A DNA stretch of 37,757 nt from contig NMRA01001138.1 of assembly GCA_002633005.1 (NCBI GenBank), positions 12,696 to 50,452 on the forward strand, given 5' to 3'. Every line of letters begins with the position of its first letter. Within the stretch, counting starts at the first letter, position 1. Of this stretch, positions 1,590 to 37,757 are shown one piece after another. A model generated the notes under the pieces. That model made no database searches, was not told the origin of the DNA, and saw nothing but the letters and a program-made list of their open reading frames with translations. The DNA comes from Phoronis australis. Taxonomy: Eukaryota; Animalia; Phoronida. The position numbers and the translations under genes are program-made.

Positions 1590-2337
1590 CCTGAAAACTG
1601 CCCCCAAATTTAAAATATCTTGGGACTGCAAATTGGCCATGGCCGCAGAGTAACTGTTCGGTTCTACCTTTAAATGCAGGAACTCGTTGTAAGTGGGTCA
1701 TGCTGGCCGGGGCTGTCAAGTGGACCTACCACCTGAGGGCTATCATGGAGTTTGCATGAACGCAGCATATGGCCAATTGTTTGCAGGGCCTCGAAACTAT
1801 CAAAAGTCCGGGAACTCTATAAATCTGAGACGACTTATATAGTTCTAAATACCTCTTCTGCTTGGAATATACCTGATTGTCCCTCCAGCGTCATGACACA
1901 TGTTTAGGCAAGTTGTTTATGCACACTCTGACAGTGATTAGTCCCACATTCTTTGATTCGCCAGCAGCAAAATAAATCAAGCTTGAAATTATCGAATCGG
2001 TGAAACAAAACAACTGTAAGTGACCAAACGTGTTTTCTAGTCTGGTTCATTTTTACACTTGTGTTAACTGATGTGAGCAAGACACATCATGGTTCGTGCG
2101 TCCGCGGAAGAATTTCATGTGAGTGATTTTATATTTCTTGCACACACACACAATATTAAATATGAATTATTACAGACTGTGGATGCTGATAATGATTCTG
2201 ATGCAACGGAGGTAGTTGTCCGCTTTTTGACACCGCTAGGCGCTGAGGGAAAGTGTTTATTGGGCTGTTCTGTTGAGGATGTTAAATTGCAAAATTTGAC
2301 AAGCTTAGGCATTCCTAGGTACAAGTGTAGATCCTAA
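1590..2337 (+). pseudogene. Possible heavily decayed DNA-transposase C-terminus (Sola2-like)
   Basis: Broken-frame peptides LAGAVK, LETIKSPGT and VSDFIF...EVVVRFLTPLG...VEDV loosely resemble the GKG.CDG.GG.VK / TV.GT..H / V.V.F...G...ED motif series. Weak resemblance only. Confidence 0.22.
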
Positions 2338-7011: not shown

Positions 7012-7516
7012 CGACATTTTCCCGTTGCTCACAACTTGTTCGATTCTATAACCCAACAACAAGTTGGGAAGTTTACCCCTGTAGCCAATATTTTACACGA
7101 CTGAGTAACTCCATTCTGGCATTTATGGTTGGAGGGCCAGCTCTCTTTTGTTCGATAATTGCTCTAATCTCCAATCAGATCGTTTCTACCCTGACTGGGC
7201 TGTGCTGTTAAAAAGAAAAGTTAAGTTATTACATATTTGAACATAAAACAATAGCATTTCTTAAATCTTCGTCAAATGGTGATCCTGTTTAGATTTGGAA
7301 TCCCCAATATCGCCCAACTGCAACCGAAATTACGACCATCTAGTCTTTCGGAATAAACCAATTCACTCTGAATTTGACTGTGTTCACACGTGGTCTGTAA
7401 TAAGCGTGGTAGATAATTGGCCTGCTTGTTGTCATAACAGATAAAAGGGTGTGCTTGGTAGTTAACAAAGAAGCTAGAGGTTATCATACGCTCGGAACCC
7501 CTACGTCTGGTAAAGT
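7012..7516 (-). repeat. Dispersed repeat, copy A (copy B at 25205-25725)
   Basis: Colinear, clearly alignable with 25205-25725 (e.g. CAACAACAAGTTGGGAA, TAACTCCATTCTGGCATTTATG, CTCTTTTGTTCGATAATTG shared). Confidence 0.9.
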
Positions 7517-8463: not shown

Positions 8464-8869
8464 GTAAGCCAGAATTCGTCAGAGAAATCACCGTCGACGA
8501 AATGCCGGCCACATACACGGATGTTTCACTGCCTAATACTTGCTATTAACTTCCTACCTTTCATTCTTCACTACCCCGAGCTACTTCCTAAGCATTTCGA
8601 GCTCCCGAGGAAGTCGAAAAAACGATATACCCGGTTTCTTCGAGGCTTCATAGTTCGGACAAGCGGGAACGATGCACCACAATATAGCGGCATTCACTCT
8701 CGAGACGAACCACTGGCGTCACAGCGTCGTTTCTCACCTTCCTCACAGGTTAACGCGACACCTCTCGGCAAGGTGAGGTTGACCGTATAAGAGGCGATGA
8801 TAGAGAGATATCTCGTGAGATTTAGGAAGATAGTTTTTAACTTGGTAAGAGGGAATGGTAGATTGGCAT

Positions 8870-11500
8870 GACAGAAGTGATTTTTGAAGCTTGTTTTGAT
8901 CATTTAGGGTAAACGGCTGTCTCTTAAAATTGAAGGAACTGTATTCCAAGTTTTTATACACACTGGAATTTTTGATCTGCGAGTTGCCCTGGAATATGAC
9001 GTGGGAATTGTGAAAATAATGGTATTCATAAGGCCAGTCGTTCGGTATTCTCTTTAATATGTGTTAAATAAAAGCTTATTAGACGAATTGTTTATGTTAT
9101 TGAAAACTTTAAATGTGTTCATGGCTGTGTGTAGTTTCCTTCGTTCGGAAAGTGTAGACCAACTCGAGGTATCGAGAAGTTTACATGATCCTGTGATTGA
9201 TAGTGCAGCTTGATACAGCGAACGGTCTAGTTGAAGTAGAAAAGCACCAGCGGGTTGGTAGATAATGTCTCCGTAGTCAAAGTGGAGTAAGACAAATGCA
9301 TTAAACAAACATCTAGGTGCATTGAACTAAGTTGCCTTGATATAAATCTGATTGGGTTCAGGAACTTTTGAATCTTAGCAACTAGACCACGACAACGAGC
9401 ATTCAAAAAGAGGTTGTTATCAACAACAATACCTAAGTGTTTGTGGGTATATTTGTTGGGTATTCTCCAACCTCTAAGTTGTAAATCAAATAATGGATCT
9501 ACAAGCAGTAGTGAGTTTTGGGATGGGGAGAAAATAATGTCACACTTTTTTCTGCCTGAAAATCCATTCGCCATTTGAAGAAAGTCTGTGTACATCATCT
9601 TGTAGTTTCATAGATAGTTGTGGATTGCCTTTAGGGAAAGTAAGAAATAAAGATGTGTGATCAGCGTATACTGTAGATAGGTTGTACATGAAGTATTGTC
9701 GGGAAGGTCATTTATGTATAGAATGAAAAGTAATGGACCAAGAACACTGCCCTGGGGCATGCAAACCCGCATTCACGTAGCCCGGAGATGACGACAATGA
9801 ATATACACCATCAATTCACACTTTGTAGATGGGATTATGGAAATAACATTCCAATAAACTTAATAGAGTACCAGATATTCCAAACGATCTTAATTTGTAA
9901 ATGAGTAGGTAATGTGGGAACATGTCGAAGACAGAAGCTAAGTCGAGGAAAACAGACCTGACGTTATTATTATTTTCAAACTGTAAATGTGTGTCACGGA
10001 TAAGTTCAATGACTTGGGAAATTGTATTTTTCCTGTTAGAAAGCCAAACTGCATTGAGTATATGAGATCGTTTGAATTTAAATGACAAAGGGTTTTCGAA
10101 ATATAACCTTTTCTAGAATCTCGGGGAAGGTATTATGGAGAGTGATGGGGGTGATAAATTGACACTTCTGACTTCCAGTCCTTCTCGTGAAGTGATACCA
10201 CTATTTCCAAATTCCAATCGGAGGGATAATGACCTGACAACAGGGTTTTATTAAATGATTTTTGAGATGTACAGATAATTTTTTAGCTACCGTTTTTACC
10301 ATTTTATTTGTTATGAGTTCTGTTCGATTTGATTTGTTAACGTCGATAAATGAGTGAGTTGATAGTAGAGGGACTGCGTCTTGATTAGTCGAATTGATGT
10401 TTTCTTTGTTTGTAACATATTCTAGGAATAATGTGCCTTTTACGATGTTGTTTCGGCGTGTTTATGGAAGTCTTTAGAAGAAATATGAGGAAACGCGTTA
10501 TTGGCTGAAAAACATCTTATTTTGTTAACAATTTTCCAGTACTCCATAGAGTATTCAGAAAGATCTTTAATGCTTTGAATAAGACCGATATTGTAATCAT
10601 ATTTTGTGATTTTTTATTATACTTTGCATGTGTTTTGACTGTTCATTGTATTGATTGAAATGAAGGGGGTTGGCATATTATTTGTAGTGCCTGTACATCT
10701 TAGAGCATTTTTTAAGTTCGCGCTTTATCTATTCTGTAAACCTTGGTGGTAACTACTTTGAATTTGGATGGAGTGTTTTTTTCTAGGGTGTCTGCAAGTT
10801 CTTTAGTGAATCACGATAATGTAGTATCGATGTCGAATCGACTGAGAATTGCATCCCGATCGTGGTTGATTAAGTCGTTATGCATTTGAATTTGATTTGC
10901 TTTGTCGTATTTCCAAATACGTTTCATAACAGGGGCTTTGTTGTGAGCTGAACACAATAGGATAACGTGCATGTATGTATGAAATGGTGATCCGAGTGAC
11001 CGATGTGGGCAGAACGAACGAGGACGAAATAGAACTGAGGATGTTGGTAATACACAAATCAATTCAAAATTTGGAAGTTGCGGAGATTCTTGTAGGCTCA
11101 ATGATCAGTTGTACAAAGTCGTTTGCAAGTAGTACGTCGAAAAGTTCAATGCCCGCCTGATTATCGTGGTCGTCAGGAAACCAGGTATTATTTCGATCGT
11201 TGAAGATTTTGAAAGTTCAGAATGTTGTTTGGATAACAGGTTGAAATATGCTTTGCGTTCGACGGAGGACTGAGACGGGGAACAATAGAAGAAATCGTAT
11301 TTAATTGTCATATAAGTTACATGTAATTCAATCCAGCATTAGCAGGAACTTTCCCCTAATTTTATCAGACAACATCTTATAAATCTCAGAATTGTGAAGA
11401 AACAATATTATACTTCGGCCATTGTAGCTATGATATGTTAAAGAATAATCAGGATTAGATAATTTAATTTTGAGATCGCCACAAGTTATTTTCCCAGACC
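8870..11500 (-). mobile_element. Decayed CR1/L2-group LINE ORF2 (AP endonuclease + reverse transcriptase)
   Basis: Motifs in correct order on the minus strand: FFYCSPSQ (APE, ~11290), RIWKYDKAN, RSVFLDLASVFDMFPH..LIYKLRSFGISG (~9870-9960), MPQGSVLGPLLFILYINDLP (~9700-9760), YADHT (~9660), HKHLGIVVD, HFDYGDIIY, WSTLSERRKLH. Many stops and frameshifts. Confidence 0.92.
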
Positions 11501-12946
11501 GGCATATTGCAACAACAGTTATAAGAAATTCGCATATAATTCGTTAACAGTGACGTTGTTCGAAAATTACAAATCGTCATAACTTCACACAATAACAGTT
11601 GTAATTGTCTACATTTTAGAGTTAGCGACATCGTCGACATTGACAGCTACGAGGGGGTTTCCTACATGCAGTTCCAGTTTGGGGACGGACACTACAGGAC
11701 AGTCAGACGATGGAGACGATATGTCATCTGGTCTCAAAAAGATTTCGATTCAAAGCAGCGCCGAAGACCCAGAGGTATGTTAGACAGGCGTTCAATCTTT
11801 GGTATCCAAAGCTTGTCCTCATGAAGTAAATAAATTTCTCACAATAACTGTAAAGTGTTACGACACGGCTGGTTAATAACACCGAGTACTTAACTTTTTA
11901 TACTACATGTGAGAATCACGAAATAGTTCAACGTTGAAATCCAAACGCCTTACATTCCATAGCATGCCAAACACTAGTAGACCTACCAACAACCAAGCAA
12001 TGCTTGAATACCGTGAAGATGACAAGTTTATGATTGACAGATCGCGTGTAAGTACTCGCACTTTCAGCACAGTAATATTTCCAGTATTATAACGTCCGCC
12101 TCTAACTATCCGACACGCTTCAATATGACACAAAAAGTAGCACCATGTGCGTACTCGCAGGCGGAAGAAAATGCAAACAACTTCTTAAACGGACCCATCT
12201 TTCGCAACATTCCATATCCACGTTCTTTCAAACCGAGACGAACCCATTTTCATGTAAGATTTCGCTCTAGTCCGATTGCGACTGATCTTTTACCTATGGA
12301 ACTTCACTTTTACATAATATCATAAAATGGGTGATGAGACTCGTCAGATATTACTGGTATGGAACGCCCCTAGCGTCACCTTCTGACGGGTCTTCTCAGA
12401 CACGTTACGAGTCATCGAGGCGCGTCAGAGTTGACTCGAAATGTACTTCCCAAGTGTGTCAAGTTACCGCCCCATCACTGTGGGACCAATAAGACGTTGT
12501 CATTTGCTCAGCTATGACGTATGCTTCGATGTCAGTCAGTTTACGCCCCAACTGACCCGATATCTGACTAGCCTAAAAGGTCAATAGCCATCCCACTTTG
12601 CATTTGACGAATAAGGGACAAGTTAACATTCACACTCGTATCAATTAAATGAATCATAATCCACCTCTGTGGAGTGTAGCGCCCAGCAACAGTATAACGG
12701 TGGCTTCTGCGTAAGAATAGCATGCAATGTCAAATTGTTATAAATATAAACGAGGCAATGCTGTGAGTGACGAGGAGTGGATGACTGTGACCTTGGAGTC
12801 ACGGTGATTTTCACAGTGCTGTGCCAACAGTTGTAGGTTTTATTCGCTTGATCAGTGAAGATGTACCAGTTGCTAAAATTACAGTCTTGCTCAGTGGAGA
12901 CAGGCTGTCGTGTAGATTGTGAGGTTGTTTTTATACGAGGCAGTAC

Positions 12947-13737: not shown

Positions 13738-15359
13738 AGTAGAGATGCCTTTAATAAAGGGACAATGTCTCTCTAATTGAGAAGCCATACGGTGGCCAGA
13801 GGCATGACATTTGAATTATAGGATTACCATAACAATACTTCTGTTTCTTTTCAAGATATGTTTGAAGGACTGTATAACACAATATATGAAATTGCTTAGC
13901 AATACAAGTGTTTGAGATTTGCCTAGGAATAGCAGTTTCACCTTCAACAGTGGTGGTAATATCAGGTGTCCCAAAAGCATTCAGCTGATATAGGAGCTAT
14001 GGGATGTCCCAATAAAAATTGGCACAAAGTATGTTATTTCCATTGAGAACATGAATTATGTAAGAAATGCTGTAAAAATTCTTTAATACCCTGACACATC
14101 CTTGGGGATGATTGATAATGAGGATGTTTTCTGTTTTTCATCGTAGGTTTGGCCTAGTAATTAAAAATACATCCAATCAAGATCATGTCAGAAATTTATT
14201 AATGCCCAGGCTTCTAATTGAAGCTTTATCATAGTCACAGGTCTTTGAACAGCAATTCAGCCATGACCACAAATATCAAGGCTTTAAAATCACATTTAAA
14301 GCCAGTCGAGAGCAGAATCCCACAAATTACAACGTCAAACATACACAGGAAGGAATTGACAGAACAAACTAACAACTTAATGAATCCTTCCCATTCAATG
14401 CAGAAACTCTAGTATAACAGATTACAAGTTACTAGCTTGTGAAAGACCATTTCAACTGGTAAATTAACATGAGCACCTCGCCTATGAATATGAACTTGTC
14501 ATAGAATTTACAAATCGCAGTGTTTTCTGATACACTTGTAAGCTGTGAGTTTCTGTAATGTATAGTGAAGATACAAGTTCGTCAAGCCAAGATAGGTTGT
14601 TACTTGAGAGAGGACATGGAGAACATTCTGGAGCTATTCATTCTTGGGTATGTAGATCAACATGTTTCTTGAACAGCTCAGCAGTCAGATTGCTGTACGG
14701 CAGTGCCAACACTTGCAGAACAAACAGCCAGTATGATGACTTGCCCTTCTCTGTTCACAAACCATGGTGGTTCCATTGACTTTAAAAGGCTTTCAATGAT
14801 TGATTAATTTTGAGTAAAAAACACATAGTGCAAGCACCAAAAGGACAGCTGATCATCCGGATCCAAAACACGTTTCTCCTCTAAAAACTGAAAGTGAAAC
14901 ATCTCATTGTACACATTGGTGACACCACGCCACATATGTCGCCACAGTCTTCCTGTCCTCGGATTGTGCACACTCTTTCCTTGAATGGCACTCCCTCTGT
15001 CCAGGCCACGGAACATTTCCATGAATGCACCATGGTCACATCTAACTCGCGAGGGTGCACCTTACTTCATTACCGCTTTTTGAAAGCAATCAAGGACAGT
15101 TGTAGAACAGTTGTTAAAGGATGCTTTCCCATACACCAGGAACCGAGTGTCACTGTCTATTCCAGTATCTAAAACAAAAGATGTACTTATAGCGTATGTA
15201 AGACAAGAAAAATATAGCCATGTTTCTGAACAGTTAGTATTTAATATTAAAAATGTGATATGCACATTAGCAACAAACATTTGTGGCACCCCATGTAAGC
15301 ACATTTGCAGTACTGCACCAAGGCACTCGGTCTCACAGAGGCTACTATCTTTTATCAGA

Positions 15360-15507: not shown

Positions 15508-17637
15508 GCCCGTCACATTTGTCGTATGACAGGACAATATGTGATGTGTCGGCGACAGAAGTTGAGGAAAATCACAATAGTGAAGAGACCGTGGTACAAC
15601 ATTAGGGACACAAGATGGCACACAACTGACATTTTATTTTCTGCTTTTTGCATAGAACATTAGTATCCCCAAACTATTACTTTCTCATTTTCAAGTTTTG
15701 TACCATAGCTACCATCAAACAAAGTTTTGAAAAATTGTGAGCATTCACAAGATTAGAAGCCTTTAAAAATAAACAAGAGCAATGCAGGGCGTTGAAATGC
15801 GCCCACACATGCTCAGAAAATGGAGTGCTTCTAAGGGTATTTATTTCTATCAGAAAAATGGCCACTAGATGGCGCAAAATACGTTGAAGTCATCTGAAAG
15901 CAGAAACAGGTCTTTAATAGAAAGCTATCAGATTTCATAAAAATCCGTCAAGGAACTTCAGAGCAACAGAGGAAAACAGAAAAAAATGAAATTGTCACCA
16001 AGGGGCACATCATTGATTACATCTGTCTGAAAATCGTTATCATCGTCCGTAGTCAACTTCATATAAATACACTTGCTAAATTTCATAAAGATTCTGCAGT
16101 GGGTTTAGGAGAGTACAGCTATGTCTGCAAAAAAACAAAAGTGCCACAGTAGGCGAAGTCCTCAGAAAAACACGGTCAACCATCCTCTTCACACTAAGAA
16201 CATATGTGCTAATTTTCACAAACATCCTTAGAGTGGTTTGTAGGGTTCATAGAGGGGCAGACGCCAAAAATAGACAAGAAAACAGTAAAAATTGCCACTA
16301 GATGGCGCAAAATACGTCCAACCCATAACAAAATAGGAAAATGTCACCACTTCTTTAATAGAAACCTATTTACAAAATTTCATACAAATCCATCAAGGAA
16401 CTTCAGAGAAACAGAGGAAAATGAAAAAAAAATGAAATTGCCGGAAAATGGTGTCATACCACTAATTGAAGCCCATGTGAAAAATTTCATGAAAATCCGT
16501 TGAGGACATTTGAAGATAGAGGTGAACATAAAAATAAAAATTGCCACTAGGGGGCACACCGATAGTCCGATCCGTCTGAAAGCCGTCGTAGTTTGTTGTC
16601 GACTTCATACAAATACACTACCTCAATTTAGTACAGATCCTGCATAGCGTTAAGGAGATACAGCCATGGGCACAAAAACAAACAAAATTGCCACTAGGAG
16701 GCGCCACAGCAGTTGAAGTCGTCAGAAAATCATCGGCAGCTGTCCTCGTCATAGTAACAACCTATATGCCAATTTTCATAATCATCCTAGGAGTAGTTTG
16801 GTTGATAGAGGGGCAGACACCAAAAAACAGACTCGAAGACAACAAAAATGGCCACTAGGTGGTTCAAAATACCGCAAATATATCTGAAAACAAGAGGTTA
16901 GCGTCATCTCACTGATAGATGCCCATATTTCAAATTTTATGAAAATCATTTTAGGATCTCTGAAGATATAGAAATAAGCATAAAAAATAAAACTGCCACT
17001 AGGGGGCACACCGGTAGTCGGATAGGTCTGAAATTTGTCATCATCTGTTGTCAGCTTCATAGAAACACATCTATCAAATCTCTTCAAGATCCTGTGAGGG
17101 GTTTAGGAGATACAGATGCGGACGCACATAAACATGTGGGCGCATAAAAATGGACGGTTTTGGCAATTATTATGGTCTGAAATTAGTGAGATTTTACCGC
17201 ATTGCATGCCAAGAACAGCGTCGGCAAATTTTGAACTTGTTCAAAATCATTTCAACGTCGTACAACAGTTCTACAACAGATCTATATCGTAACACTGTGG
17301 TGCGATGCCTCACATTTGTTGTATGATAGTTGTACGACTGACATACGATCTTTGGGTTATCCGAGTCTAGAATAGTCCTACAATCGTACTAGACAACCGA
17401 CAGTCCCCCAAACGTTTTACCATCACGTACATGCTCTGGGACCATCGAACATTAAAAATATGACTACATATCATAACATCATTGGATGTCAGGCATACAA
17501 TGTCTTGCAACACCTTGGTTTAATGTCGTAGGACATTTGTACAACAAATGTGACTGCGAATATGTCAATACAGAAGACTATCGTACAACAGCATTTTTGT
17601 TGCCCTGCTAGCATCATACCACGAATGTGACACGGGC
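15508..17637. mobile_element. Non-autonomous TIR element flanked by TTAA, split by a nested Helentron-type element
   Basis: TTAA|GCCCGTCACATTTGTCGTATGA at left and TCATACCACGAATGTGACACGGGC|TTAA at right. Internal TCGTACAAC/GTTGTACGA repeats at 17250-17600. Confidence 0.78.
15771..17150 (+). mobile_element. Non-autonomous Helentron/HINE (DINE-1-like) element with internal ~145-bp tandem array
   Basis: Starts AAACAAGAGC. Subterminal inverted repeat ATGCGCCCACA 15797-15807 / TGTGGGCGCAT 17135-17145 is followed by an A run. About 9 diverged internal units carry CCACTAGRNGGCRC and AAATTTCAT..A.ATCC. Confidence 0.75.
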
Positions 17638-25204: not shown

Positions 25205-25725
25205 CGACATCCCGTTGTTCCCAACTTGTTCAACAACAAGTTGGGAAATTTACCCCCGTAGCCAGTATCTTACACGACTGATTAACTCCATTCTGGCATT
25301 TATGATTGGAGGGTCTGCGCTCTTTTGTTCGATAATTGTTCTAATCTCCGAACAGATCGTATCTAGCCTGACTGGGCTGGGCTGATAAAAATGAAAGCTA
25401 AGTTATAACATATTTGAGCTTAAACCAATAGCATTTCTGAATTCCTCGTCAAATGCTGATCACGTTCCGTTTTTGAATCACCAAAATCGCCCAACTACAA
25501 CAGAAGTTCAGACATTCTATTCTGTCCAAACGGATTACCAACGCACTGGGTTTGACTGTGTTCATACGCGTTCGGTAATAGCGTGCAATCACCATACGTT
25601 TCCTTTGAAACCTGGGAGATAATTGGCCTGCTTGTTATCTTACGGGACAAAAGACTGAGCTGGGCAGTTAACAAAAGAGCCAGATGTTATCGCACGTTCA
25701 GCACCCCTTCACGTCTGGAAAAGTT
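25205..25725 (-). repeat. Dispersed repeat, copy B (copy A at 7012-7516)
   Basis: Direct alignment with copy A, same orientation. Confidence 0.9.
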
Positions 25726-25757
25726 ACTGAACGACAGAACGCTGTAATGATTTGTTT

Positions 25758-26255
25758 CGGTTAGCAACGGCTTCCGATAATTTTATTAATTAGTCGTGCC
25801 ATACTCCGGAAGTGACATTTAGGGGGTTAAGAATTTCCTTCCATTTCGTTTTCATAAATTCTGACTGTGTGTCCTGTCGAGTCAGTCATGGTTTTACCTT
25901 GATTGTGATCAGTTCGGTAGTCGTTTTCATTTGTTAACGAGCCAGTCAACACGCCGCACGGTTGGTGCGTACTGGGGTGTACTCATTATCGCTCGCACAC
26001 TTTGGGTATGCCATTACACAGCTTTCCGAAAGATGACAGGCTCTGCCACACTTGGCCCGTTCGTAGAATACTCATCGATGGGAAGTGGTGACGACAATTT
26101 TAGGAGACCAACACAAAAACAACAGTAGAACAGATCCTCCCAGTAACTCGAACGCACCAGAAACGAAATGTCGGTAAATTTTTTAACCCCCTAAACGTCA
26201 CTTGCGGAGTAGTGCACGACTAATTAACAAAATTACGAAGAGCCGTAATTAACTG
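25758..26255. mobile_element. ~500-bp MITE with ~78-bp imperfect TIRs
   Basis: TTAATTAGTCGTGCCATACTCCGGAAGTGACATTTAGGGGGTTAA (left) versus TTAACCCCCTAAACGTCACTTGCGGAGTAGTGCACGACTAATTAA (right). The similarity extends to C(A/G)GTTA termini. Confidence 0.85.
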
Positions 26256-26719
26256 AAGCATATGCTTGGTTTAATCAACGAACCGTATTTTTACTACAAA
26301 TAACACGAAAAAAGGTTGCCTTCCCCTTTAAAAGCGCCTATGATGAAATAATAAGGCGGGGCGCTATGGGCCAGCTTAGTGAACAAATCTTGTGTATTCC
26401 CTCAAAATAAGGAGGGTCGCTTTGTTTCACAACAATAAAACTAAGCGCTTTTGATGGACGAGAGTCCAAGGTTATTGGCAGTTGGATCTCCTCCAAGAGG
26501 GATAAGGATGCTTGATTGCAATCGTTTAAGACAACATTAGGAAGGTTTGAGTGGGAGGTGCTCGAAATTGACCTATCGCCAGGATTACGACTGACGGCTT
26601 AACTGGCCAATCAGAACACAGCATTCTTGACACACCTTCGTCTGCTTTTTCTAAGCCGCCATTTTACCCGAAAAAGAGTACGTTGGCGTGTTCATACATC
26701 AACAAATTTTGGCTTTATA

Positions 26720-26935
26720 ATGGTAAAACGGTGCTGCTATGGCGTCTGCAAGTCTGACAGCCGGTATGCGGCTAGAGAGAAACATCCTGTCTCATTTTGG
26801 CCATTTCCCAAACCGAAAACTCATCTCGAGCAGTGTAAGGTATGGATAAAACTCTGTGGACGGCCACACGTACAGCTCATTTTGGCAATGTTGTGTGATT
26901 ATCCCAAGGCTAAACATAAATATATTTGTTCCAAG
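26720..26935 (+). pseudogene. Transposase exon 1: THAP zinc-finger domain
   Basis: MVKRCCYGVCKSDSRY...FWPFPKPK..LEQCKVWIKLCGR...YICSK, ending at the donor AAG|GTAAGT (26935/26936). The exon supplying the final HF was not found. Confidence 0.9.
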
Positions 26936-28048
26936 GTAAGTATATTTTTCAGTTTGGTGGCTGTAGTGTAGGCGTATCTGAATTCAACTACGCAGTTTCA
27001 CTCGTCTGGCGGCATTTGTCTTAGCACCTGTTTGACCGTAGTCAGCCAGCTAGCTGTATGAACACTGTCGTCAAAATACATACTTAGTATACAGCTTTGT
27101 ACCAATGCTAGTTTTACCCCAGCACTGACAATGGGCACTATTATAATGAACATCGTTTTGTTTTGTGGCAAAGTGACAAACCATTTTTATTTTTTATTCA
27201 TATACCAATAGGGTGGTGCCTAACTGAACTTCTATCTAAAATTGTCATTTTTAGTTCGATCGACATAGTCGGGAGGGTTACTGCCTTTTACTGAACTAAA
27301 GCCTTGTTCGAGCTGTCACAAAAACGTTAATTTATTTTTGTTGAGAACCTCTAGTTTACACTTCGTCTATGGAGTTGGAGAGGTGAGGTGTCCTTTTGTA
27401 GTTGTTCAAACAGGATATTTTAATTTCTGAAGCTTCAAAAGTATATTTTGTAAATATCCATTTTTTGCTTCTGGGTGCCAGTGTGTAATCTTTTGTAATC
27501 ATGTCACAACTTAGTGATTATGCTCCTTTTAGAATTAGACCACTCTCCGCAACAAAATTGATTTAATTTTGTTCTTTGCTTGGATTAAAAGTGGCCACTG
27601 AGAATAGGAGAAAAACTATAATTGTGCATGACAATGGCTTTAGGTTGAATTTTACAAAAAATATAACGTAAATTGTGTGTGGCAATAATGCTAAGCTTCT
27701 AGCCAAAGCAACAATCAAGAAGTTTTTTTAAGCAAAAATGTCTCATGTACAACACTTCATAATAGGCATTTTCAATATGAATGAAATCACAGCACTAAGG
27801 CAAAAGTTGAAAAAATGCGTGCCCCTTTCTCGAATGAGCAGCAACAGTGGCAAGCCTGCGAGAAGAAATATATTGCCCAAGTTAGACGATTTTCAGTTCA
27901 CCAGATAAATACATTTCAAACAAGTGACGTGTTCGGAGTGAGTATTACGTCTAAGGGAAACAATACGACTGTGGCAAATTTCACAAATCTAAAAATTACA
28001 ATAAGAATCACTTTAATTCAATTTACAGTCGTTCTCACACGTTTCAGT

Positions 28049-28160
28049 TTCACCATGGCAGCTTACCAGATTTCACATCTCAGTGAAAACTCAGCTGAAT
28101 GCTCATATAACGGACCGACACATGCTGATCCAGAAACTCAAACTGTGGAACCAGTAGAAG
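28049..28160 (+). pseudogene. Transposase internal linker exon
   Basis: Acceptor ...CGTTTCAG, peptide ...SYNGPTHADPETQTVEPVE, phase-1 donor G|GTGGGT at 28160/28161 matching the phase-1 acceptor at 29129/29130. Confidence 0.6.
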
Positions 28161-28919
28161 GTGGGTGCAGTTTGGCGACATGGCCAATAAACACGTTTTT
28201 CATCTTCTCAAGAATTTGTTTCATGACACTGAGGTCGGGATGAATCCGTTGTATATGCAAGTCTCTTCTTGTGTATGTCACAAAATCACAGAAAGAAGCT
28301 CCAGACACTAACAGCTACCCTTGAACTTGGAACCAATGACTATGGTCATTTCGCAACAAAATTTCATCTCCAAATTTGGATAAAAACAGAGATTCTTTTT
28401 TTCGTAAGTTGTAAGTGCTTCTTGAAGATTCATATATCGCATGCTGTACGGGCATTTCACTTCTAACAGCCCCACCTCTTCAATGTCGTATACTTTCCCA
28501 TCACGCGAAGCTCCAATGAATGGAAATTCAGGATTAACTATAAATCCACAGTCATGAACGTGATTACCCGTTTGCTTCCGATACATGTTCTTGGTAACTT
28601 TTTCATTGCACGTTCCGTAAGTGGCGGCAGTTGCCTGAAATGGTTTGGGATTTATCTGTAATTGGAGCCATACGAAGCATAAACCGCGCAAGGTTAGACG
28701 CTGTAATTCTCGCCTCAAATCATGTAAAGCAGTTACTGTAGCTTGTGCACGAGTGTCATTCTCTAGCTTTCTGGCATCCTCGAATGTCATCTTCATAAAC
28801 TCGTATTCTTCCGCAAGGCAAGTAACGGCGTTAGCAATCGGACTGGGATGTGGGAAGTTCAGATCGCCACAAGACTTTGATTCTCCAGAAGGTCCTCTGG
28901 GCAGATGAATCAGGGGAGC
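28138..28919 (-). pseudogene. YqaJ/lambda-exonuclease-like gene, terminal (catalytic) exon
   Basis: Acceptor TCTTGTTGCAG|GCT at 28920/28919. Motifs LENDTRAQA, YGTCNE, CGFIVNPEFPFIGASRDG, LLEVKCPYS, then after a frameshift HWFQVQG*LLVSGASFCDFVTYT...IQRI. Stop TGA at 28140-28138. Confidence 0.92.
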
Positions 28920-30442
28920 CTGCAACAAGACAGAATTAAGATGAAAATCCATGAAAAACCTTAAAATTCCTTCGAACAATAATGTAACTCAGCATAAAGT
29001 TTCTGTCTTTCAGGCTTAAGTACATTTCACCTTTGGTGATCGAGGCATTTTCAGCATGAGTGAGGTAAATCTTCAGTGAAATTGACAATTTTGACTATAA
29101 ATTATATCTCAAAGTGATTTTTATATCAGGCCCACCAGGTTTGGATTATTTGGCTGTTGCTGCTGAAAACAAACTTCTTGAAGCAAAGTTGAAAACTTTA
29201 ACTGATGAAGTTCATCGAGGAAAAATAAAAGCTGAAACAAAGAATGCAGCCACCATGGGATTTTCTGTTGCTTCACTCAAAAACAGCCACGTGAAGTATA
29301 ATTTTGAATATCACACAGGATTCACCTTCGAAGAATTTCAAAATATATTTGATTTCTTAGTCCCAGATAAGCATGAACTTCTCCAAAACAATCAGCAGCT
29401 TCTTTATGAAAAAGCTTCAGGAAATTCTAATCACAAAAGCCAGTGAGAATCTCACTCCAGTTAGATTCCAGTGAAAATATAACTAATTAAGGTGATATTT
29501 AAATTGGTGAGAAAAAAATTCTCACTCTAATGAGAATACAGTGATATTCCACTTAATCTAACTAATTTGCAGAGCATTCCCACTCAGTGAGAATTTGTTT
29601 TTTACTGAAATTCTCAGTCAGAAGGAATGCTATGCAAATTAGTGAGAATTTGTGTTACTGAAATTCTCACTGAGTGAAAATCTCACTGGGTGAAAATTTT
29701 GCGAATGTGCCTTTTATACAGTCACTCACTGAATAGATGAGAGATCAAAGCTTTTTTGGTAACCAAAACACAGCTTATTTTTGTGAGTTTATCTTGAAAT
29801 TTTACTAAGAATACAATTTAATTGCAAATTGTGAAATATTACATTTTCACGAAAGACGTCGCTCTAGTCGGTTAGCGACTAGTTTTCCACATTTGGCACA
29901 GCACATTTCCAAAATACCGCGAAAAACGGGTGATGAGGCTGGATCTCGAAAGATCATATCGGTTCGTATCCGTGCCAAATAAACCGCAGAAAAAACCTTT
30001 CGTCATTGTTGTAATTTGAATGCATTTCGTAGCAGTTAGGACTAAGTTCTTAAAAATGGTAAATATAATCCTTGTAGATGAGAAAATCCGTATTTGTCGA
30101 CTCGTTTGTGTATCAAAATTAAGACTTATCTCCCTTGTCATGCATACTCGGGGAATTCCCTGTCAAGGGAATCCCCGAGTAGAATCGCGACGAATGCGGA
30201 CGATACTGGAGTACCTGTAGTATTAATTGAAGCAATTTTAAAACGAAAAACATCATTGAAACGGTTTAGTTATCACTAAGTGAACATAAGAGGTTCACTG
30301 TGCGATTAAGATGAAACTAGCAGAAGAAGCATAGTTGACAGGTCAACTAATTGCTCTTTTGACGTTCCCACACTGAACTGCAATTTGTTTGCTTATTAGC
30401 CATGTAGTTCACCAAACTTTAGTAGATATTTGCCGTGCACTA

Positions 30443-30620
30443 ACAGCGCCCCGAAAGTTGGGGGGTCGGCGATGTGACCTGGTGTTCCCCCCCAAAAAAC
30501 CGGAAACCCAATTCCGCCGTGCTCTGGGGTTTTCCTGTTCCTTGTTGGAGAACTCCATATTTCTTTACGCTCCACACTGTTGCTGTTTAATTTTGCTTGC
30601 ACCAGCCGGGGGGGTGGGGT
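30443..30620 (+). mobile_element. Degraded fragment of the same MITE family
   Basis: Shares CCC.AAAGTTG.GGGG and CTGTTGCTGTTT.ATTTTGCTTGC with 30713-31018. Confidence 0.6.
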
Positions 30621-30712
30621 CAATACCAGAACAGCAACAATTTTTTGCGAGACATTAGTGATGTTGATACAGATGATGAAGAAAATAGTGGTGTCGTTTT
30701 GTAGTACTGTTC

Positions 30713-31018
30713 CAGTGGCGGATCAGGGACCAGAAGGGGGTCCCCCAACACCTTGCCTCGGGGAATTGGGCAGAGCGCGGTTGTATGTGTACAGGCGTCC
30801 CAAAAGTTGCGGGGGCCAGGAGTATGAAGCTTCTGTGCGGGAAATCTATAGACTAATTTTAAAAAGAAAAAAATCGGGAACGAGAGCCCGCCACGATCTG
30901 GTGTCCGAGTCCCCCCCTCTCCAGTATCGGTCCTAGTTACATTTCCTCACGCGTCGCGCTGTTGCTGTTTCATTTTGCTTGCGGCAGCCCCAGCCCCCTC
31001 CCCCTAAATCCGCCTATG
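30713..31018 (+). mobile_element. MITE (hAT5-like), perfect 5-bp TSD TGTTC
   Basis: CAGTGGCGGATC...CCCCTAAATCCGCCTATG. TGTTC at 30708-30712 and 31019-31023. Same family as 13451-13737. Confidence 0.88.
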
Positions 31019-31934
31019 TGTTCCAATTAGAGATATAATTAAAGGAAATTATCAAGTAGTGTTTGCTAACTTTGAGGCTCTGGCATCAAAAAGTGATGGT
31101 GTGAAATGCTTGCAAAAGAAGAAGTTAGCTTTCAAAACAAGGGATTACCTGACAACGTGGCAATTGTGGTAATCAACGAAGGACACATTGTGTTAGAATG
31201 GTGAGTTTAATGTAGACAAAAATACTTTCAATGACATCTATTCGTATCACAACAGGTTTCACAGCACCAATTTTTATGCTTTTTCTAATACCCAGAATTT
31301 CCAAATCTGAGCCTGGAAAATTTACGGAAATCTGGGAAGGCTGCCAGAAATAATCAAAAACATAAATTTATTCAATGCAGATGCACTAAAGAAAAAATGC
31401 CTCCCAAGAGACACGACAACCTGGATTTAACAAGGAACCCAGCAGCCCTTTTAGGTCACCCTGAAATACAAAAACTGTCGGAAATCCACATCATTAAAAA
31501 TAAGATTTTCATGGGTGATTTTACTGTTGAAATTGCCCTTTAATTTTTGATTTTTGATAGAATAACACCATCAGTGATAGTGTTATCAAAGCAAAAAATG
31601 TGCAGAGAACATCATGTAGACATGCATTCTTAACTATATATATATAGGAAATCCAAAATATATAACATTTTAAATGTTTATGTAAAAGTAATTCTGTATT
31701 TTACATTGACGTTAGATGCTAAAGGCACAATTGTAACGTTTCATTAAATCGTTAAACCATTTATTTTTTCCAAAACATATGTAAACAATAACATTTTATC
31801 ACATGGCACAAGTTCCCTTGGTATGTATCAGTCTATCCAATAAAAATATTATTCTTTGATCAAAACCCCCTTAAGTATATTAAGCACTGAGATCATTCAA
31901 TGGCTAACTCACCATGCAACTGATTTTAATAACA

Positions 31935-31953
31935 ACACACACACACACACACA
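31935..31953. repeat. (AC)n microsatellite
   Basis: About 9.5 AC units. Confidence 0.9.
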
Positions 31954-34900
31954 TCTTGTGAAAAAAACACTCATAGCTTACATATCAGAAAGTCCCTCAA
32001 GATTTTTAAATTGAAAGCATTATGTCATGACTCTTTAACCACACTGGTACTACCACTAATATCTGCTTCAGAGTCATTAACTGAAATGGACTATTGATAT
32101 ATGTTGTCATTTATGATTTCTACCTTTCGTCACTGACATTTTTAAAGCTGGTGTAAACTACCACACCACCACTAAAGATCAAAAACTAAACAATAAAGTG
32201 TCATTACTTTTACAACCTTTTTTCTTAAAGCAGATCCTCTTATAAACAAAAACAGTCATCCATCAGTTTTACAGTTAACTACACACTGAATTTCAAAAAT
32301 TGATTACGCACAAATTCTCTAGTTTTGGACAGTGAATAATTATTTTGATCAAAATCGGAGCTTGTCCCAATTTTTAGAAATTTACACAATTGTCTGCCAG
32401 AAATTCAAGGGGAATGGTAACAATTTATTAAATGTTTGTCATGAGAGTCACTTTTTATGAACTTACAGGAGTGTTCTTGCAAGCTGTTATGCTACAACAT
32501 AGCGTTGGATTTAAAAAGCATGAAAATATACAAATCACTCACGCCTCAAACTTCAGGATGAAAAATTTAAATTTCAGCCATGATTTCTGTGTTCTGAATT
32601 TAGGAGGCTGCCTCAATCTCGAGTATTTTTAATATAACATATCACCGATCTAATTGCTATCATGAAATATGTCACCTTTGCTAAAAATATGTGTTAAAAA
32701 CAATTATAAGCTATAAATGTGAGCCATATGAAAAATGTTCAAACATACATGTACACCATTGCCAGCATGGTGACGAATACATGCAGCAGACAATAACCTC
32801 TGTACGGCTGTGAGGCTTTTTAGCAAACATCTACAGGTATCCCATGCATTATGGCTTTCAATTTTTACAAGCATGACAGATGTGCCCCCTAGAATTATCT
32901 GTGTTCAAGTGAGTTGACTCACGGCTGTAAAATTTTAATCAAGCTGATCAATTTTAGTACTGTAGATGGGAAATATGTTTAATTAACCTTTTGCAGAAAT
33001 TCTATAATAGCTACATAATTACAAAATATGACTGCTCGCATATAATGGTCACTGACATGGATATCAAATTTCATCCACTGACAGTAACATACGCTGGAAG
33101 ATTTAAGGCGAATTATGCCTCACACTGGCGGGAACGGTAAAAATAGGAGGGCGCGCAGTGTAAAACTGGCCAGTTGACGATTTGGGCAACTGAACGAAGG
33201 ACTGATTGTAGAAAAAGTTACATTACAGGAGTATTTGTTTGTGTTGAAAGAAATTAAAAATATCAATGGTTACCTAAGGTGTCCCTCTATGAGCAAGAGC
33301 TGAGGTACTTAAACAACATGACTTCGATGTTTTTATCAGAGTGAGGAATAAGTCACCGAAAATCTATCAATGTATGAAACTCTCAGAGGCGCTTCACTGT
33401 TTCTGCTGGGGCCAGCTAGAGACGGTGGTCACTATCTAATCCACTAAGTAATAGGAACGTTATTGGTTATTTTTTGCAATCCGTGTTATTCAGTTGTTAC
33501 ATTAATCAATTTTTTCGACCATGTCCTTGTCCTGTCGTCCGTTTCCTATTTTTCCCTAGTATAAAGTGACCGACAACACGTGTATTCACCTGGTGAAATC
33601 TAGACATTTGCTGTCACTGACCGTGTTCCATCTGGCTAACACTAACAGCCTGATTCCGTGAGGTACGTATAACTAGTGAACCTGCGCTAAAGTTATTACA
33701 ATATGTTGATAGTGTCATTCTCAAAACCAGGGAACATAATATCCGACTTGTTTCCAAAGTAGTTAGACGTGATAAGACTGAACTCTGAAGTCGAAGTCCA
33801 AGCGGCCAGCCCACAATCACAGTGATGTGTCGAAAATCACCAACTTATCTTCAATTCAGACCCTTTTAACTCACTTTTTAAGCAAGTACCACCGTGCAGA
33901 CGTACACGGCTTGTCCAGGTTAGATTCCCGGTTCGGACATTGATCTGTGTCGGCATTTAGAACAGTTGTTCAGTAACATTTACATTGATTCAAAAACGCA
34001 ATAGATCTACTGACTAAACCCAGAAATCGCGAGCCACCATGTTTACAAAAGCGCCGTCTACAGAGGAAAATGATAGAAGTGAACTACTTTCGCGCAGGCA
34101 AATGTACTCCATATGAGTAAGATAATACACGCAATGTTGGCTTACGTAGTAATTGGAAATATTAAGCAGAAATAAACTAAAAACTAGAATGTTTTTGGTG
34201 AATCACCAAAATACTGAAAACTCAGCTGTCAACGCAGAATGAAGACACCAGTCTAATACTTGTACTTCATGCACTCTACTAGATGTATGAAATGTACTAA
34301 CCTTAAGCTTATTAACACACAAAATCAGTCTAGGGTCCACTCTGGTTGACTTGCAGACAAACTGTTCAATAATTTCACAATATTTGTGAGAAAAACATCA
34401 ACAATCTTTAAGCTATTTCTCCAACTGCTCATTCCTGGTGCCATTTTAGTTTGATTTCAGAAATCTGGTTCAATTGAAATTTCCACAGTTACAGCCAATC
34501 AGTGTGTTTGTTTATCTTAAATTCTCACTGAATTCTCACTCCAATTTTGGCAAGTCCAAATTCTCACTCAATTCTCACTCAGATTTTTTCTAAGTCTGAA
34601 ATTCTCACTGATTTTCACTCAGAATTTTTCTAAGACCAAAATTCTCACTGGATTCTCACTGTTACATAACATTTTCTCACTATTTTCTCACTGACTGCCC
34701 CTGTTGTTCAATTCACACTGGGTTTTCACTGGCATTTCTAACTATAATTTGTGATTTGGTGAGAATATAACTGGAATCTAACTGGAATCCAGTGAGATTC
34801 TCACTTTCTTTTTCGTAAGGGAGTGCTAAGAACATGTCACTGCAAGAGCAACTCCTGCTTACGCTAACGAAACTGTGATTGAATTTCGATTTCAAACACT

Positions 34901-35818
34901 TGGCAACTCTTTATGGGATATCTCCTCAGGATGCTACAGCACATTTCAAAGAGTGGGTCAACTTCATGTTCAACAAATTTGGATCAGTAACAATTTGGCC
35001 AGACCGCAACATTCTCTACAAACATATGCCGCCAAAGTACAAGAAAGATTTTCCAGACACTTTCCTCATCATAGATGGCACAGAAATTAAAGTGGAAAAG
35101 CCGAGTTCCCTGAGAATCCAAAGTCAATGTTATTCAGATTACAAGTCGTGTACTACTCTAAAAGGACTTGTAGGAGAGGAACCCAGGGGATCATTTACTT
35201 TTATATCCATGCTATTTTCGGGGTCAATCTCAGATAATGATATCACAAGATCAAGTGGCTTACTGACAATGCTTCAGCATTGACTGCGGTAAATTAAAAC
35301 AAGGTGATGGCATCATGGCAGACAAAGGCTTCTTAATTAGAAAATAAATTGAAAATATTGGACTGAAATTATACATCCCCCTTTTGCACCAGGTTGTGGT
35401 CAGATGTCACCCAGTGATGTTGCCTTAACCAAAAAGATAACTGCTCACAGGGTCCATGTTGAAAGAGCTATTTCAAGAGCGAAAAAATCAAAATTGTTGA
35501 CCATAGATTAGCGTTAAGTTTATTTGCTTTTGTGAATCAGATTGGGTTCGTATGCTGTTTTTTAACATGATTCGTGCCATATCTCATACAGGAATAAAAT
35601 GCATTATATTTAACTAAAGCTGACTGAACATGATTATGCTCAAATATGCCTCACATTAGTGGATATTTTCTTCAAGCTTGAATTTCAAGATTGTCAAAGC
35701 TTTCTGTAAATGATTAAAAAGCTTGAACAATATTCAATTGGTCTTGATTAAATAATGTCGCTAAGCTAGTTGTGCACCTTTTAGATCGATTAATGTTGCC
35801 AATTATAGACGGATGTAC

Positions 35819-35963
35819 CTGATGTGCTAAGGAACTTCCCAGGCTATAAGTACCGGATGGTGTGTCAATCAGCTTGTGTGGTAGAGTAGCCCGGAATGAA
35901 ATCGGTGTGTCCTTGATTCTCTTTAACACATCCAGGTCTCGACTTTCAATGGCTTTCACCTTT
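35819..35963 (-). pseudogene. YqaJ gene internal exon
   Basis: Acceptor TTTTCCAG|A (phase 2), KVKAIESRDLDVL...LIDTPSGTYSLGSSLAHQ, donor CAG|GTACAT (phase 0) joining in frame to APLIHLP at 28919. Confidence 0.82.
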
Positions 35964-36378
35964 CTGGAAAAGATAGGAACACATTAAAATCTCTTGCAAT
36001 TTCCGAAGCTTCTTCAAGCCATAAGCATGTTTAGATCTACGAGTGCTTTGGTAATGTTTCAACTGTCTTGGGGAAAGTCATTACATTCATGTGGCAATGG
36101 TGGTTGTTTCCATTTAGTTTCAAACCATTGAGTCGTGATAATTGTCTCATTACCATGGTACACCATTTGTGGCTTAATCTCTCAAAGGGATTGTTTCATC
36201 TCACTTTGAACCTGCCTAGTTTTGGCTAGCCATCGCACACTTGAATACGCATTAAACTATTCATGTAAGATCCTATAAAATGATGCAATTTTGTGCTGTA
36301 CAGGCGATAGCGTAGAAAGACAAGGTCAGGAGGGGTCATGGGTCACTGCTAGTGGAAGGGGCCGGCTCTCATCCTGAC

Positions 36379-37133
36379 AGCCAGTGAGAATCTCACTGGA
36401 TTCCTGTTAGTTTCCAGTGAGAATCTAACTAATTAAGTATCCATTCAAATTAGTGAGAAAAAATCTCACTCTAGTGAGAATACAGTGATATTCCAGTTAG
36501 AATTCAGTGAAAATCTAACTAATTTGCATAGCTCGGTGAGAATTTCAGTAAGACAAATTCTCACTGAGTGAGAATGCTATGCAAATTAGTGAGAATTTGT
36601 TTCACTGAAATTCTCACTGAGTGAAAATCTCACTTGCAGACAAACTGTTCAATAATTTCACAATATTTGAGAGAAAAGCGTCAATAATCTTCAAGCTATT
36701 TCTCTAACTGCTCATTCCTGGCGCAATTTTAGTTTGAATTCAGAAATCTGGTTCAACTGAAATTTCCATAGGAACAGCCCGCAATCAGGGTGTTTGTTTA
36801 TCTTAAATTCTCACTGGATTCTCACTGCAATTTTGGCAAGTCCAAATTCTCACTCAATTCTCACTCAGAAATTTTCTAAGTCTGAAATTCTCACTGATTC
36901 TCACTCAAAATGTTCCTAAGACCAAAATTCTCACTGGTTTTCCCTCAGAATTTTACTAAGACCAAAATTCTCACTGGATTCTCACTGTTACATATCATTT
37001 TTTCACTATTTTCTCACTGACTGTCCGTGTTGTTCAATTCTCACTTGGTTCTCACTGGCATTGTGATTTAGTGAGAATCCAACTGAAATCTAACTTGAAT
37101 CCAGTGAGATTCTCACTTTCTTTTTCATAAGGG
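36379..37133. mobile_element. Short copy of the same ATTCTCACT element (left terminus missing)
   Basis: Aligns to 29438-29687 joined directly to 34352-34821. Ends CTTTTTCATAAGGG. Confidence 0.9.
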
Positions 37134-37554
37134 GGAGTACCCCAAGCACCCTAGGGGAACAACTTGGTTTTGAAGGATATGGAGAGAAATGTTGACTGGA
37201 GAGGGCTCCAAAGTAGGCATTTAGTTTGGGCGAATATCTTTAGTCCTCGCAACGCCAGTGTGGACATTTAAGTCCATTACAATGTCAGTTCAATTCAGCT
37301 CAGTAATTTGTTGAAGTTAAAAATTATCTTCTGTCAATCAAATAAAATATTAATGATCAGTTGACTATTGTAGCGTGCTGCATTCACAATAGTAGTGAAA
37401 CAAAAAGTAAGATTTGACAAAATTGAGGTCGCTAAGTATCAGCAAGTCAGTGTAGTTGAAAGTATAAGCCAGAACTTAATTTAGAATTTTGTGAAGGACC
37501 AAATCACTTCTGTGATGAAAGTGTAGCATGATTATGTTGTATTCTAATATCTAC

Positions 37555-37757
37555 CTACTGTCAGTAAACACAGCCACCACTGGTCATCGTTTGCGATCTT
37601 TGTTTCCTGGCTTTGAAATTATCATTTGGGATACTGGCTCAGCCTGCACCTTGGGGCCACGTGGCTTGTCCCACTGCTGATGCAGGCTTGTGCAGGCTTG
37701 CTGACTTGGCACCTCACGAAGTCCCTCCAGCTTCCAGTCCCTAATAGACATCACTAC
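37555..37757 (-). pseudogene. YqaJ gene upstream exon (runs off the window)
   Basis: WKLEGLREVPSQQACTSLHQQWDKPRGPKVQAEPVSQMIISKP contains the CTS..QQW.KPR motif that follows the SWIM finger in these proteins. One TGA. Phase-2 donor AG|GTAGAT at 37555/37554. Confidence 0.85.

Follow-up and report, generated by a model that had tools for sequence, protein, structure and literature searches.

A decayed ISL2EU transposon of Phoronis australis with two facing genes, each last exon lying in the last intron of the other gene

A stretch of 37,757 nucleotides (nt) from the phoronid Phoronis australis (assembly GCA_002633005.1, contig NMRA01001138.1, positions 12,696 to 50,452), referred to here as the window, contains a decayed, dead DNA transposon of the ISL2EU (IS4EU) type, with a transposase gene on the plus strand and a gene for a YqaJ exonuclease on the minus strand. 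The two genes face each other and are interlocked: the catalytic exon of YqaJ, its last, sits in the last intron of the transposase gene, and the exon encoding the DDE domain of the transposase, also its last, sits in the last intron of the YqaJ gene. It can be held with good confidence that this layout is conserved across distant relatives and that it is likely to let the two genes of each copy damp one another. As a function for the layout, such mutual damping by head-on transcription would be the favoured candidate, although at slightly less than an even chance, and close to it stands a compact arrangement that was frozen by accident.

In the text of three papers (PMC4122938, PMC4482050, PMC9179366), ISL2EU is defined by a THAP-HTH-DDE transposase together with a YqaJ protein, by duplication of AT, by GG termini, by a length of about 4.8 kb and by occurrence in animals only; it is described as having “two ORFs” (open reading frames), its target site is given as A|AT|T, and ISL2EU/IS4EU is placed in the PHIS group. 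The pair of proteins encoded in the window bears out this identity, which had been proposed in an earlier note made from the letters of the window, and Pfam matches and splice junctions likewise uphold the order and strands of the gene pieces given there. The DNA of the window is AT-rich, full of repeats and of animal type, without long ORFs. Relevant Pfam matches were obtained in three of the seven stretches scanned: THAP at 26720 (+; E 2.8e-4, below the cut-off), YqaJ at 28311-28988 (-; E 8e-11), and HTH_Tnp_4 and DDE_Tnp_4 at 34879-35280 (+; E 1.3e-4, below the cut-off, and 8.7e-18, above it, respectively). The second gene, YqaJ, is without the PIF/Harbinger trait (Myb/SANT/MADF), and the duplication in L007, a related locus described below, is AT rather than TWA; an assignment to PIF/Harbinger was ruled out on these two grounds. 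Spy elements have a single ORF, lack THAP and leave no duplication at AAATTT; the two genes and the THAP domain rule this type out.

On its left side, the window element is flanked by AAT (26566-26568) and its putative terminus begins with TG; its right end and the partner terminus lie beyond the window, whereas L007 has AT at both sides and a terminal inverted repeat (TIR) beginning with GG. After the model of L007, the first YqaJ exon, its promoter and the right TIR would be placed beyond the end of the window. The window copy is without functional interest of its own: seven stops, together with frameshifts, interrupt its DDE exon, and its YqaJ exon carries one frameshift and one stop; it has also taken up an insertion of 5.4 kb and lacks an exon.

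The exons are referred to as T1 to T4 (transposase) and Y1 to Y4 (YqaJ). The three junctions which had been read from the window, all GT-AG, hold: 28160^29130 (+) in phase 1 restores VE-G-PP, 37555^35963 (-) in phase 2 restores TDS-R-KVK, and 35819^28919 (-) in phase 0 restores SLAHQ-APL. These junctions exceed chance, because the same sites and phases recur in relatives: among the loci inspected, the acceptor of the DDE exon is conserved in 10 of 11, the last YqaJ acceptor in 9 of 10, the middle YqaJ donor and acceptor in 8 of 9 and 7 of 7, and the upstream donor in 9 of 10. The middle YqaJ exon of the window was missed by tblastn and by a whole-protein profile, and was detected only via a profile of the relatives' middle exons, for which 35953-35813 is the sole match in the window (E 1.3e-10).

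Two further features proposed earlier stand with corrections. The exon placed second in the transposase gene, with a start at 28049, exists; its acceptor AG ends at 28047 in phase 2, so that it starts at 28048, and by the four-exon transposase model of L007 it is exon 3. The true second exon gave no match in the window, either with an exon profile (which finds it in L006, L007 and L017) or with sensitive tblastn; the window copy lacks it, and therefore the donor at 26935 cannot splice in frame to the exon at 28048. A contig of run X8 has 109 other letters, in frame and coding-like, ahead of 28046. The 5.4-kb insertion is confirmed by an empty site, whose joint 29395-34822 occurs in DNA (run X1) as well as in RNA (X5 and X6), and the limits of the insertion are now set at about 29399-34821; other copies carry 11 extra bases at 29371.

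The full layout can be seen in L007, a complete and intact element of 4,720 bp with the order 5'-T1-T2-T3-[Y4 reverse]-T4-[Y3, Y2, Y1 reverse]-3' inside one TIR pair. Its transposase gene has four exons (208-405, 749-891, 1063-1136, 2159-3228; phases 0, 2, 1) and encodes 494 amino acids; its YqaJ gene, on the minus strand, also has four (4682-4387, 4023-3790, 3568-3424, 2121-1300; phases 2, 2, 0) and encodes 498 amino acids. All introns are GT-AG, there are no internal stops, and both proteins align with public proteins over almost their full length. Pfam identifies a THAP/HTH_Tnp_4/DDE_Tnp_4 transposase and YqaJ (E 2e-14). With these, the domains expected in the earlier note were matched except for SWIM, which gave no match in L007 exons Y1 and Y2 scanned separately, leaving that label unconfirmed. 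The TIR is a 10-bp pair at 39 and 4758; it was absent from the five longest pairs of a general inverted-repeat scan and was found by reading the ends of the element. Since a single TIR pair encloses both genes, two nested elements are excluded.

Relatives were collected by searching with the DDE piece; this yielded 81 proteins out of 194 candidates, with 73% identity in the best of them, and the named matches are molluscan. P0172 and P0224 are full-length transposase relatives. An alignment of 39 DDE relatives was used to fetch 23 metagenome loci, L007 among them; in the viral and prokaryote collections, a related locus was not found. The YqaJ exon had 1119 homologs at E<=0.001 among representatives and none among longer proteins. 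By tblastn and profile, 20 of the 23 loci have YqaJ exons solely in the predicted order and on the opposite strand, and none contradicts it. Relative to the DDE exon (+), the last YqaJ exon (-) was placed on the upstream side in 13 loci, and in 13 the downstream side holds earlier exons of that gene (-), with one further weak match; both sides are occupied in six (L002, L003, L004, L006, L007, L008), the one-sided status of a locus reflecting the length of its contig. In L006, L007 and L017, an exon of the THAP region is located upstream of the one for YqaJ. The model of L007 was itself part of the profile, and the scores of L007 therefore follow by construction. No YqaJ match was found in L005, L018 (5'-truncated) and L021 (short and decayed), and these three loci are uninformative as to the order. 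The window and the six two-sided loci share 40-73% identity in the DDE core and are spread over three branches of a DDE tree (midpoint root, no outgroup, no named reference; L022 excluded as too short). RefSeq models of Pecten (scallop), Mytilus (mussel) and Syngnathoides (pipefish) run through the same YqaJ junctions. The comparison supports reciprocal nesting as an ancestral trait of the family, and the interlock appears to be the norm of this clade of ISL2EU.

The acceptors of the two last exons lie back to back, 33-210 nt apart in eight loci including the window (33-137 nt in the seven relatives, the value of L006 being uncertain), and the shortest spacers are 33, 37 and 46 nt. In L004 (1185-1217) and L007 (2122-2158), functional-looking 3' splice sites of opposite strands share 33 and 37 nt. 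Among nine relatives inspected, the Y3 donor lies about 10-13 nt past the transposase stop in L001, L006 and L012, and 27 nt past it in L004.

Expression was followed in stranded RNA of the same species, in three runs (X5, X6 and X7) of which about 18% each was read; the four indexed runs that contain the stretch are all DNA. First mates of X5 and X6 lie on the minus strand over transposase exons (28086-28197, 29094-29425, 35036-35707) and on the plus strand over YqaJ exons (28142-28925, 35708-36360); the segment 28926-29093 is free of coverage, and two reads of X7 fall in 27750-29425. The transposase junction predicted earlier was found in seven reads from two of four runs (2 in X5, 5 in X6; 68-72 letters on the short side), which join 28160 to 29130/29131 with one substituted base; in family members, the transposase transcript is therefore spliced past the YqaJ exon. 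In a second family copy, the donor at 28160 has been lost (G>A), and three reads join about 28182, some 22 nt later, to the same DDE exon, apparently out of frame. Coverage of the YqaJ strand has a sharp edge at the Y4 acceptor and in one run extends to about 27800, past the end of the YqaJ coding sequence (CDS); its depth of about 2 over T4 in X5 is possibly due to unspliced precursor or to mis-stranding. The layout supports the earlier claim that the primary transcripts must overlap by about 2 kb. The companion claim, that the mature mRNAs barely overlap, was understated: the end of the YqaJ CDS, at 28138, reaches 23 nt into T3, so the two CDSs overlap, and the YqaJ transcript reads on beyond them.

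Several points weigh against this account. Two assemblies account for 16 of the 23 loci, and there are several near-copies among the loci; judging from the tree, the number of distinct families would be about ten. Because the search patterns were taken from this clade, sampling is confined to this branch of ISL2EU. L005 has only 245 nt upstream, whose peptide is possibly an upstream transposase exon (L005:1-245), and it is a possible non-interlocked or deleted relative. The distances of T4 and Y4 correlate (Spearman 0.49 over 55 pairs, a value reached by 2 of 5000 permutations), which fits co-inheritance of the two genes, yet is expected because kinship alone gives it. Most RNA reads stem from other copies (18 of 85 in X5 and X6 are at least 99% alike), and therefore the RNA evidence counts for family members and not for the window locus. 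A read across the YqaJ junction 35819^28919 was not seen among the 15 of 196 joints viewed, and the closer view of the RNA did not span that junction; indirect support for it comes from the coverage edge at the Y4 acceptor and from the RefSeq models that run through it. RNA depth is just 2-10 in 1.6-1.8 Gb. Furthermore, X5 and X6 show expression of the two genes side by side and X7 almost none of either, without mutual exclusion at the bulk level.

How could the interlock work? From the anatomy, each promoter would lie next to a TIR: the distance between start codon and element end is 150-170 nt on the left and about 75 nt on the right. A motif of the type GCCGCCATTTT, which we take to be YY1-like, occurs at 26655 and also near the right ends of L007 and L008. 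Before completing its own catalytic exon, each polymerase would then have to travel through about 2 kb of template belonging to the partner, and each catalytic domain, being a single exon, would be finished only while the polymerase was crossing the partner's unit. Perhaps, with somewhat less than an even chance, head-on transcription keeps the output of each copy low and couples the two proteins. The tight spacers would reflect compaction, and a single crossover could not separate the genes. The YqaJ protein may be a 5'-3' exonuclease that processes DNA ends in transposition or in repair of the donor site, as its fold would suggest: Y4 has six matches in the PDB at E<=0.1, including the exonuclease 3syy (E 4e-8) and lambda exonuclease (E 0.015).

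A bolder version of mutual damping, that reciprocal nesting is an unremarked defining trait of ISL2EU and a built-in governor, in which two terminal promoters fire head-on across a common core of 2 kb, so that copies alternate between transposase and exonuclease and cap their own activity, seems unlikely. Within that version, the back-to-back acceptors would be a relic of head-to-head, single-exon nuclease genes that gained zinc-finger exons from beyond each other's ends, which is likewise doubtful. Nearly an even chance is given to the same architecture without a regulatory role, i.e., it arose once, saves space and has been frozen because most rearrangements break a gene, transcription being too rare for polymerases to meet. 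The three shortest spacers and the donors close behind the partner's stop fit compaction, and the low RNA depth and the joint rise and fall of both genes over the three runs also count in its favour; however, the space saved amounts to just a few hundred bases (estimated from L007), and even at a DDE identity as low as 40% the loci retain the layout and every splice phase, whereas gene order varies in plant PIF/Harbinger elements according to the text of PMC2213677. Bulk RNA cannot decide between damping and a frozen accident, because both genes are on or off together. An objection that coding-dense ISL2EU families of Hydra and coral cannot be interlocked was dropped, since the interlock needs no extra space.

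The remaining explanations are less probable. The layout could permit escape from silencing by double-stranded RNA (dsRNA) or Piwi-interacting RNA, as the earlier note proposed, because splicing removes most complementarity between the two mRNAs: of an overlap of about 2 kb, no more than a few hundred bases are left. This is unlikely and the proposal is weakened, because mature 3' ends still overlap (in the family of the window by the 23 nt of CDS plus 3' untranslated region (UTR); in L001, L006 and L012, the transposase 3' UTR likely covers Y3) and because a tandem layout would make no dsRNA, so that the interlock creates the very problem it would solve. It is similarly improbable that the layout was selected to stop transposase-only deletion derivatives. 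From the anatomy, any single breakpoint between Y4 and T4 harms both transcription units, but removal of Y4 from its intron would leave the transposase exons intact, and vice versa, and the 5' end of the element recurs in high-copy non-autonomous repeats. The claim that the arrangement ties the genes together against deletion fails on the anatomy: a catalytic exon, placed as it is in the partner's intron, can be deleted without breaking the partner, and the layout prevents only separation of the genes by a single crossover. That the order is merely local, through an inversion in the window copy or one element nested in another, is refuted to the point of being hardly conceivable, despite the heavy damage and nested insertions of that copy. 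Tail-to-tail genes and nested elements were looked for in the relatives; what was found was the same order in the 20 loci, the single TIR pair of L007 and, in a second copy of the same species, T3 beside Y4 on a 1447-bp contig. Moreover, an inverted Y4-T4 block stays back to back, and therefore one inversion cannot derive it from tail-to-tail genes.

Is the interlock new? The three ISL2EU papers call the function of the second protein unknown, and the text of one of them, Han 2015 (PMC4482050), has no matches for orientation, intron, nested, overlap or strand; orientation, introns and nesting are also absent from the ISL2EU text of PMC4122938 and PMC9179366, the figures of all three being outside this statement. 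PMC4455052, in its text, lists ISL2EU by name alone, and PMC3673617 cites the founding Repbase Report. No description of reciprocal nesting was found in the literature searched, the Repbase and Dfam records lying outside that search. The founding Repbase record of zebrafish IS4EU is said to give exon coordinates in which the two proteins interdigitate. It seems fairly likely that the layout is on record in Repbase without comment. The window element is typical of an already known family, sharing the protein pair of ISL2EU (the AT duplication and GG TIR being matched by L007), and the novelty of the interlock is doubtful, as it has probably been recorded and not discussed.

Drosophila PIF-like elements reportedly have nested or overlapping genes. 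Host genes can also be nested or interleaved, in each other's introns and on opposite strands, usually as lineage-specific pairs in large introns; unlike these, the compact ISL2EU interlock moves about as a mobile unit and has been retained from one family to another. PIF/Harbinger elements resemble ISL2EU in that a related DDE transposase is accompanied by another gene, which in some cases is oppositely oriented (Turmoil2-like loci; bioRxiv 10.64898/2026.05.26.728016), but the second gene is Myb/SANT/MADF, the order varies among lineages (PMC2213677), and the portions of these two sources considered here do not describe reciprocal intron nesting. KolobokE, in the text of PMC9587614, pairs a DDD/E transposase with a lambda-exonuclease-like PD-(D/E)xK nuclease; however, it belongs to another superfamily, its duplication is TTAA, and the coding sequence of the nuclease follows that of the transposase domain.

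An element of 4.7 kb which keeps two threaded genes across families at 40% transposase identity offers a compact natural test system for convergent transcription, for the design of bidirectional splice sites (two acceptors sharing 33 nt) and for self-regulation of transposons, and the intact L007 can be used to ask what the YqaJ protein does. There is also a consequence for annotation: ORF-based methods fragment these genes, and many database matches are a lone DDE exon of 330-380 amino acids.

Table 1. Parts of the ISL2EU element and its insertions in the window (window coordinates)
Feature	Position	Strand	Evidence or remarks
Probable 5' end of element	26566..26719	+	AAT flank; degenerate TIR start at 26569; GCCGCCATTTT motif
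T1 (N-terminal THAP part), donor phase 0	26720..26935	+	Pfam THAP; tblastn to P0172, E 7e-17; GT donor
Expected place of T2; unrelated repeats instead	26936..28047	+	Exon profile and tblastn negative
T3, phase 2 to phase 1	28048..28160	+	Last 23 nt antisense to YqaJ CDS end; phases as L007 exon 3
Y4 (last), complete lambda-exonuclease-like domain; frameshift near 28374 and stop	28138..28919	-	Pfam; tblastn; minus-strand RNA ending at acceptor
Spacer of 210 nt, two back-to-back 3' splice sites, one per strand	28920..29129	.	No RNA coverage 28926-29093
T4, 5' part (coiled coil)	29130..29398	+	RNA joint 28160^29130; tblastn to P0151; 11 nt short at 29371 compared with other copies
Secondary insertion of 5.4 kb: a decayed element with TIRs, CCC...GGG-like at its ends; AG probably duplicated; further repeats inside	29399..34821	.	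Empty-site joint; ends common with 36367-37133
T4, 3' part (HTH and DDE)	34822..35597	+	D, D, E motifs visible; Pfam; translation; 62% to P0151, 7 stops; plus-strand RNA; AATAAA overlaps stop
Y3, phase 2 to phase 0	35819..35963	-	Junctions; sites of relatives; exon-specific profile
Short non-autonomous copy of secondary element, in YqaJ intron 2	36367..37133	.	Direct repeats; 40-bp array
Y2, 3' part, cut by window end	37555..37757	-	tblastn to P0006, 65%, E 2e-21; L007 model

The likely 5' end of the element (26566-26685) is common to very abundant, transcribed non-autonomous repeats, with hundreds of RNA reads per run on both strands; hundreds of RNA reads and 179 DNA contigs begin matching at 26566, with variable flanks. 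The two copies of a TIR element at 29399-34821 and 36367-37133, both inside the one transposon, have CCC...GGG-like ends and 40-bp arrays rich in TTCTCACT, and are possibly of the CMC/EnSpm type. In RefSeq, isoforms from Syngnathoides biaculeatus that are annotated as syntaxin-binding protein 1b (P0010 and P0234) end in a near-complete ISL2EU YqaJ protein, transposon exons having been joined to a host gene model.

Elsewhere in the window, decayed pieces of a non-LTR (long terminal repeat) retrotransposon lie at 8746-11543 (-; weak RVT_1 match, E 0.013), and a transposase fragment with an rva_4 integrase core at 14807-15061 (-; Pfam E 2.8e-23). A degenerate array of five units with a CCACTAG-containing core, spaced 147-452 nt apart (15854-17110), is possibly satellite-like or derived from a Helitron. 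Two copies of an unclassified dispersed repeat, 77-85% alike, are found at 7054-7502 and 25231-25708, and immediately upstream of the transposon (25750-26263) there is an element with 87-nt inverted arms (79%).

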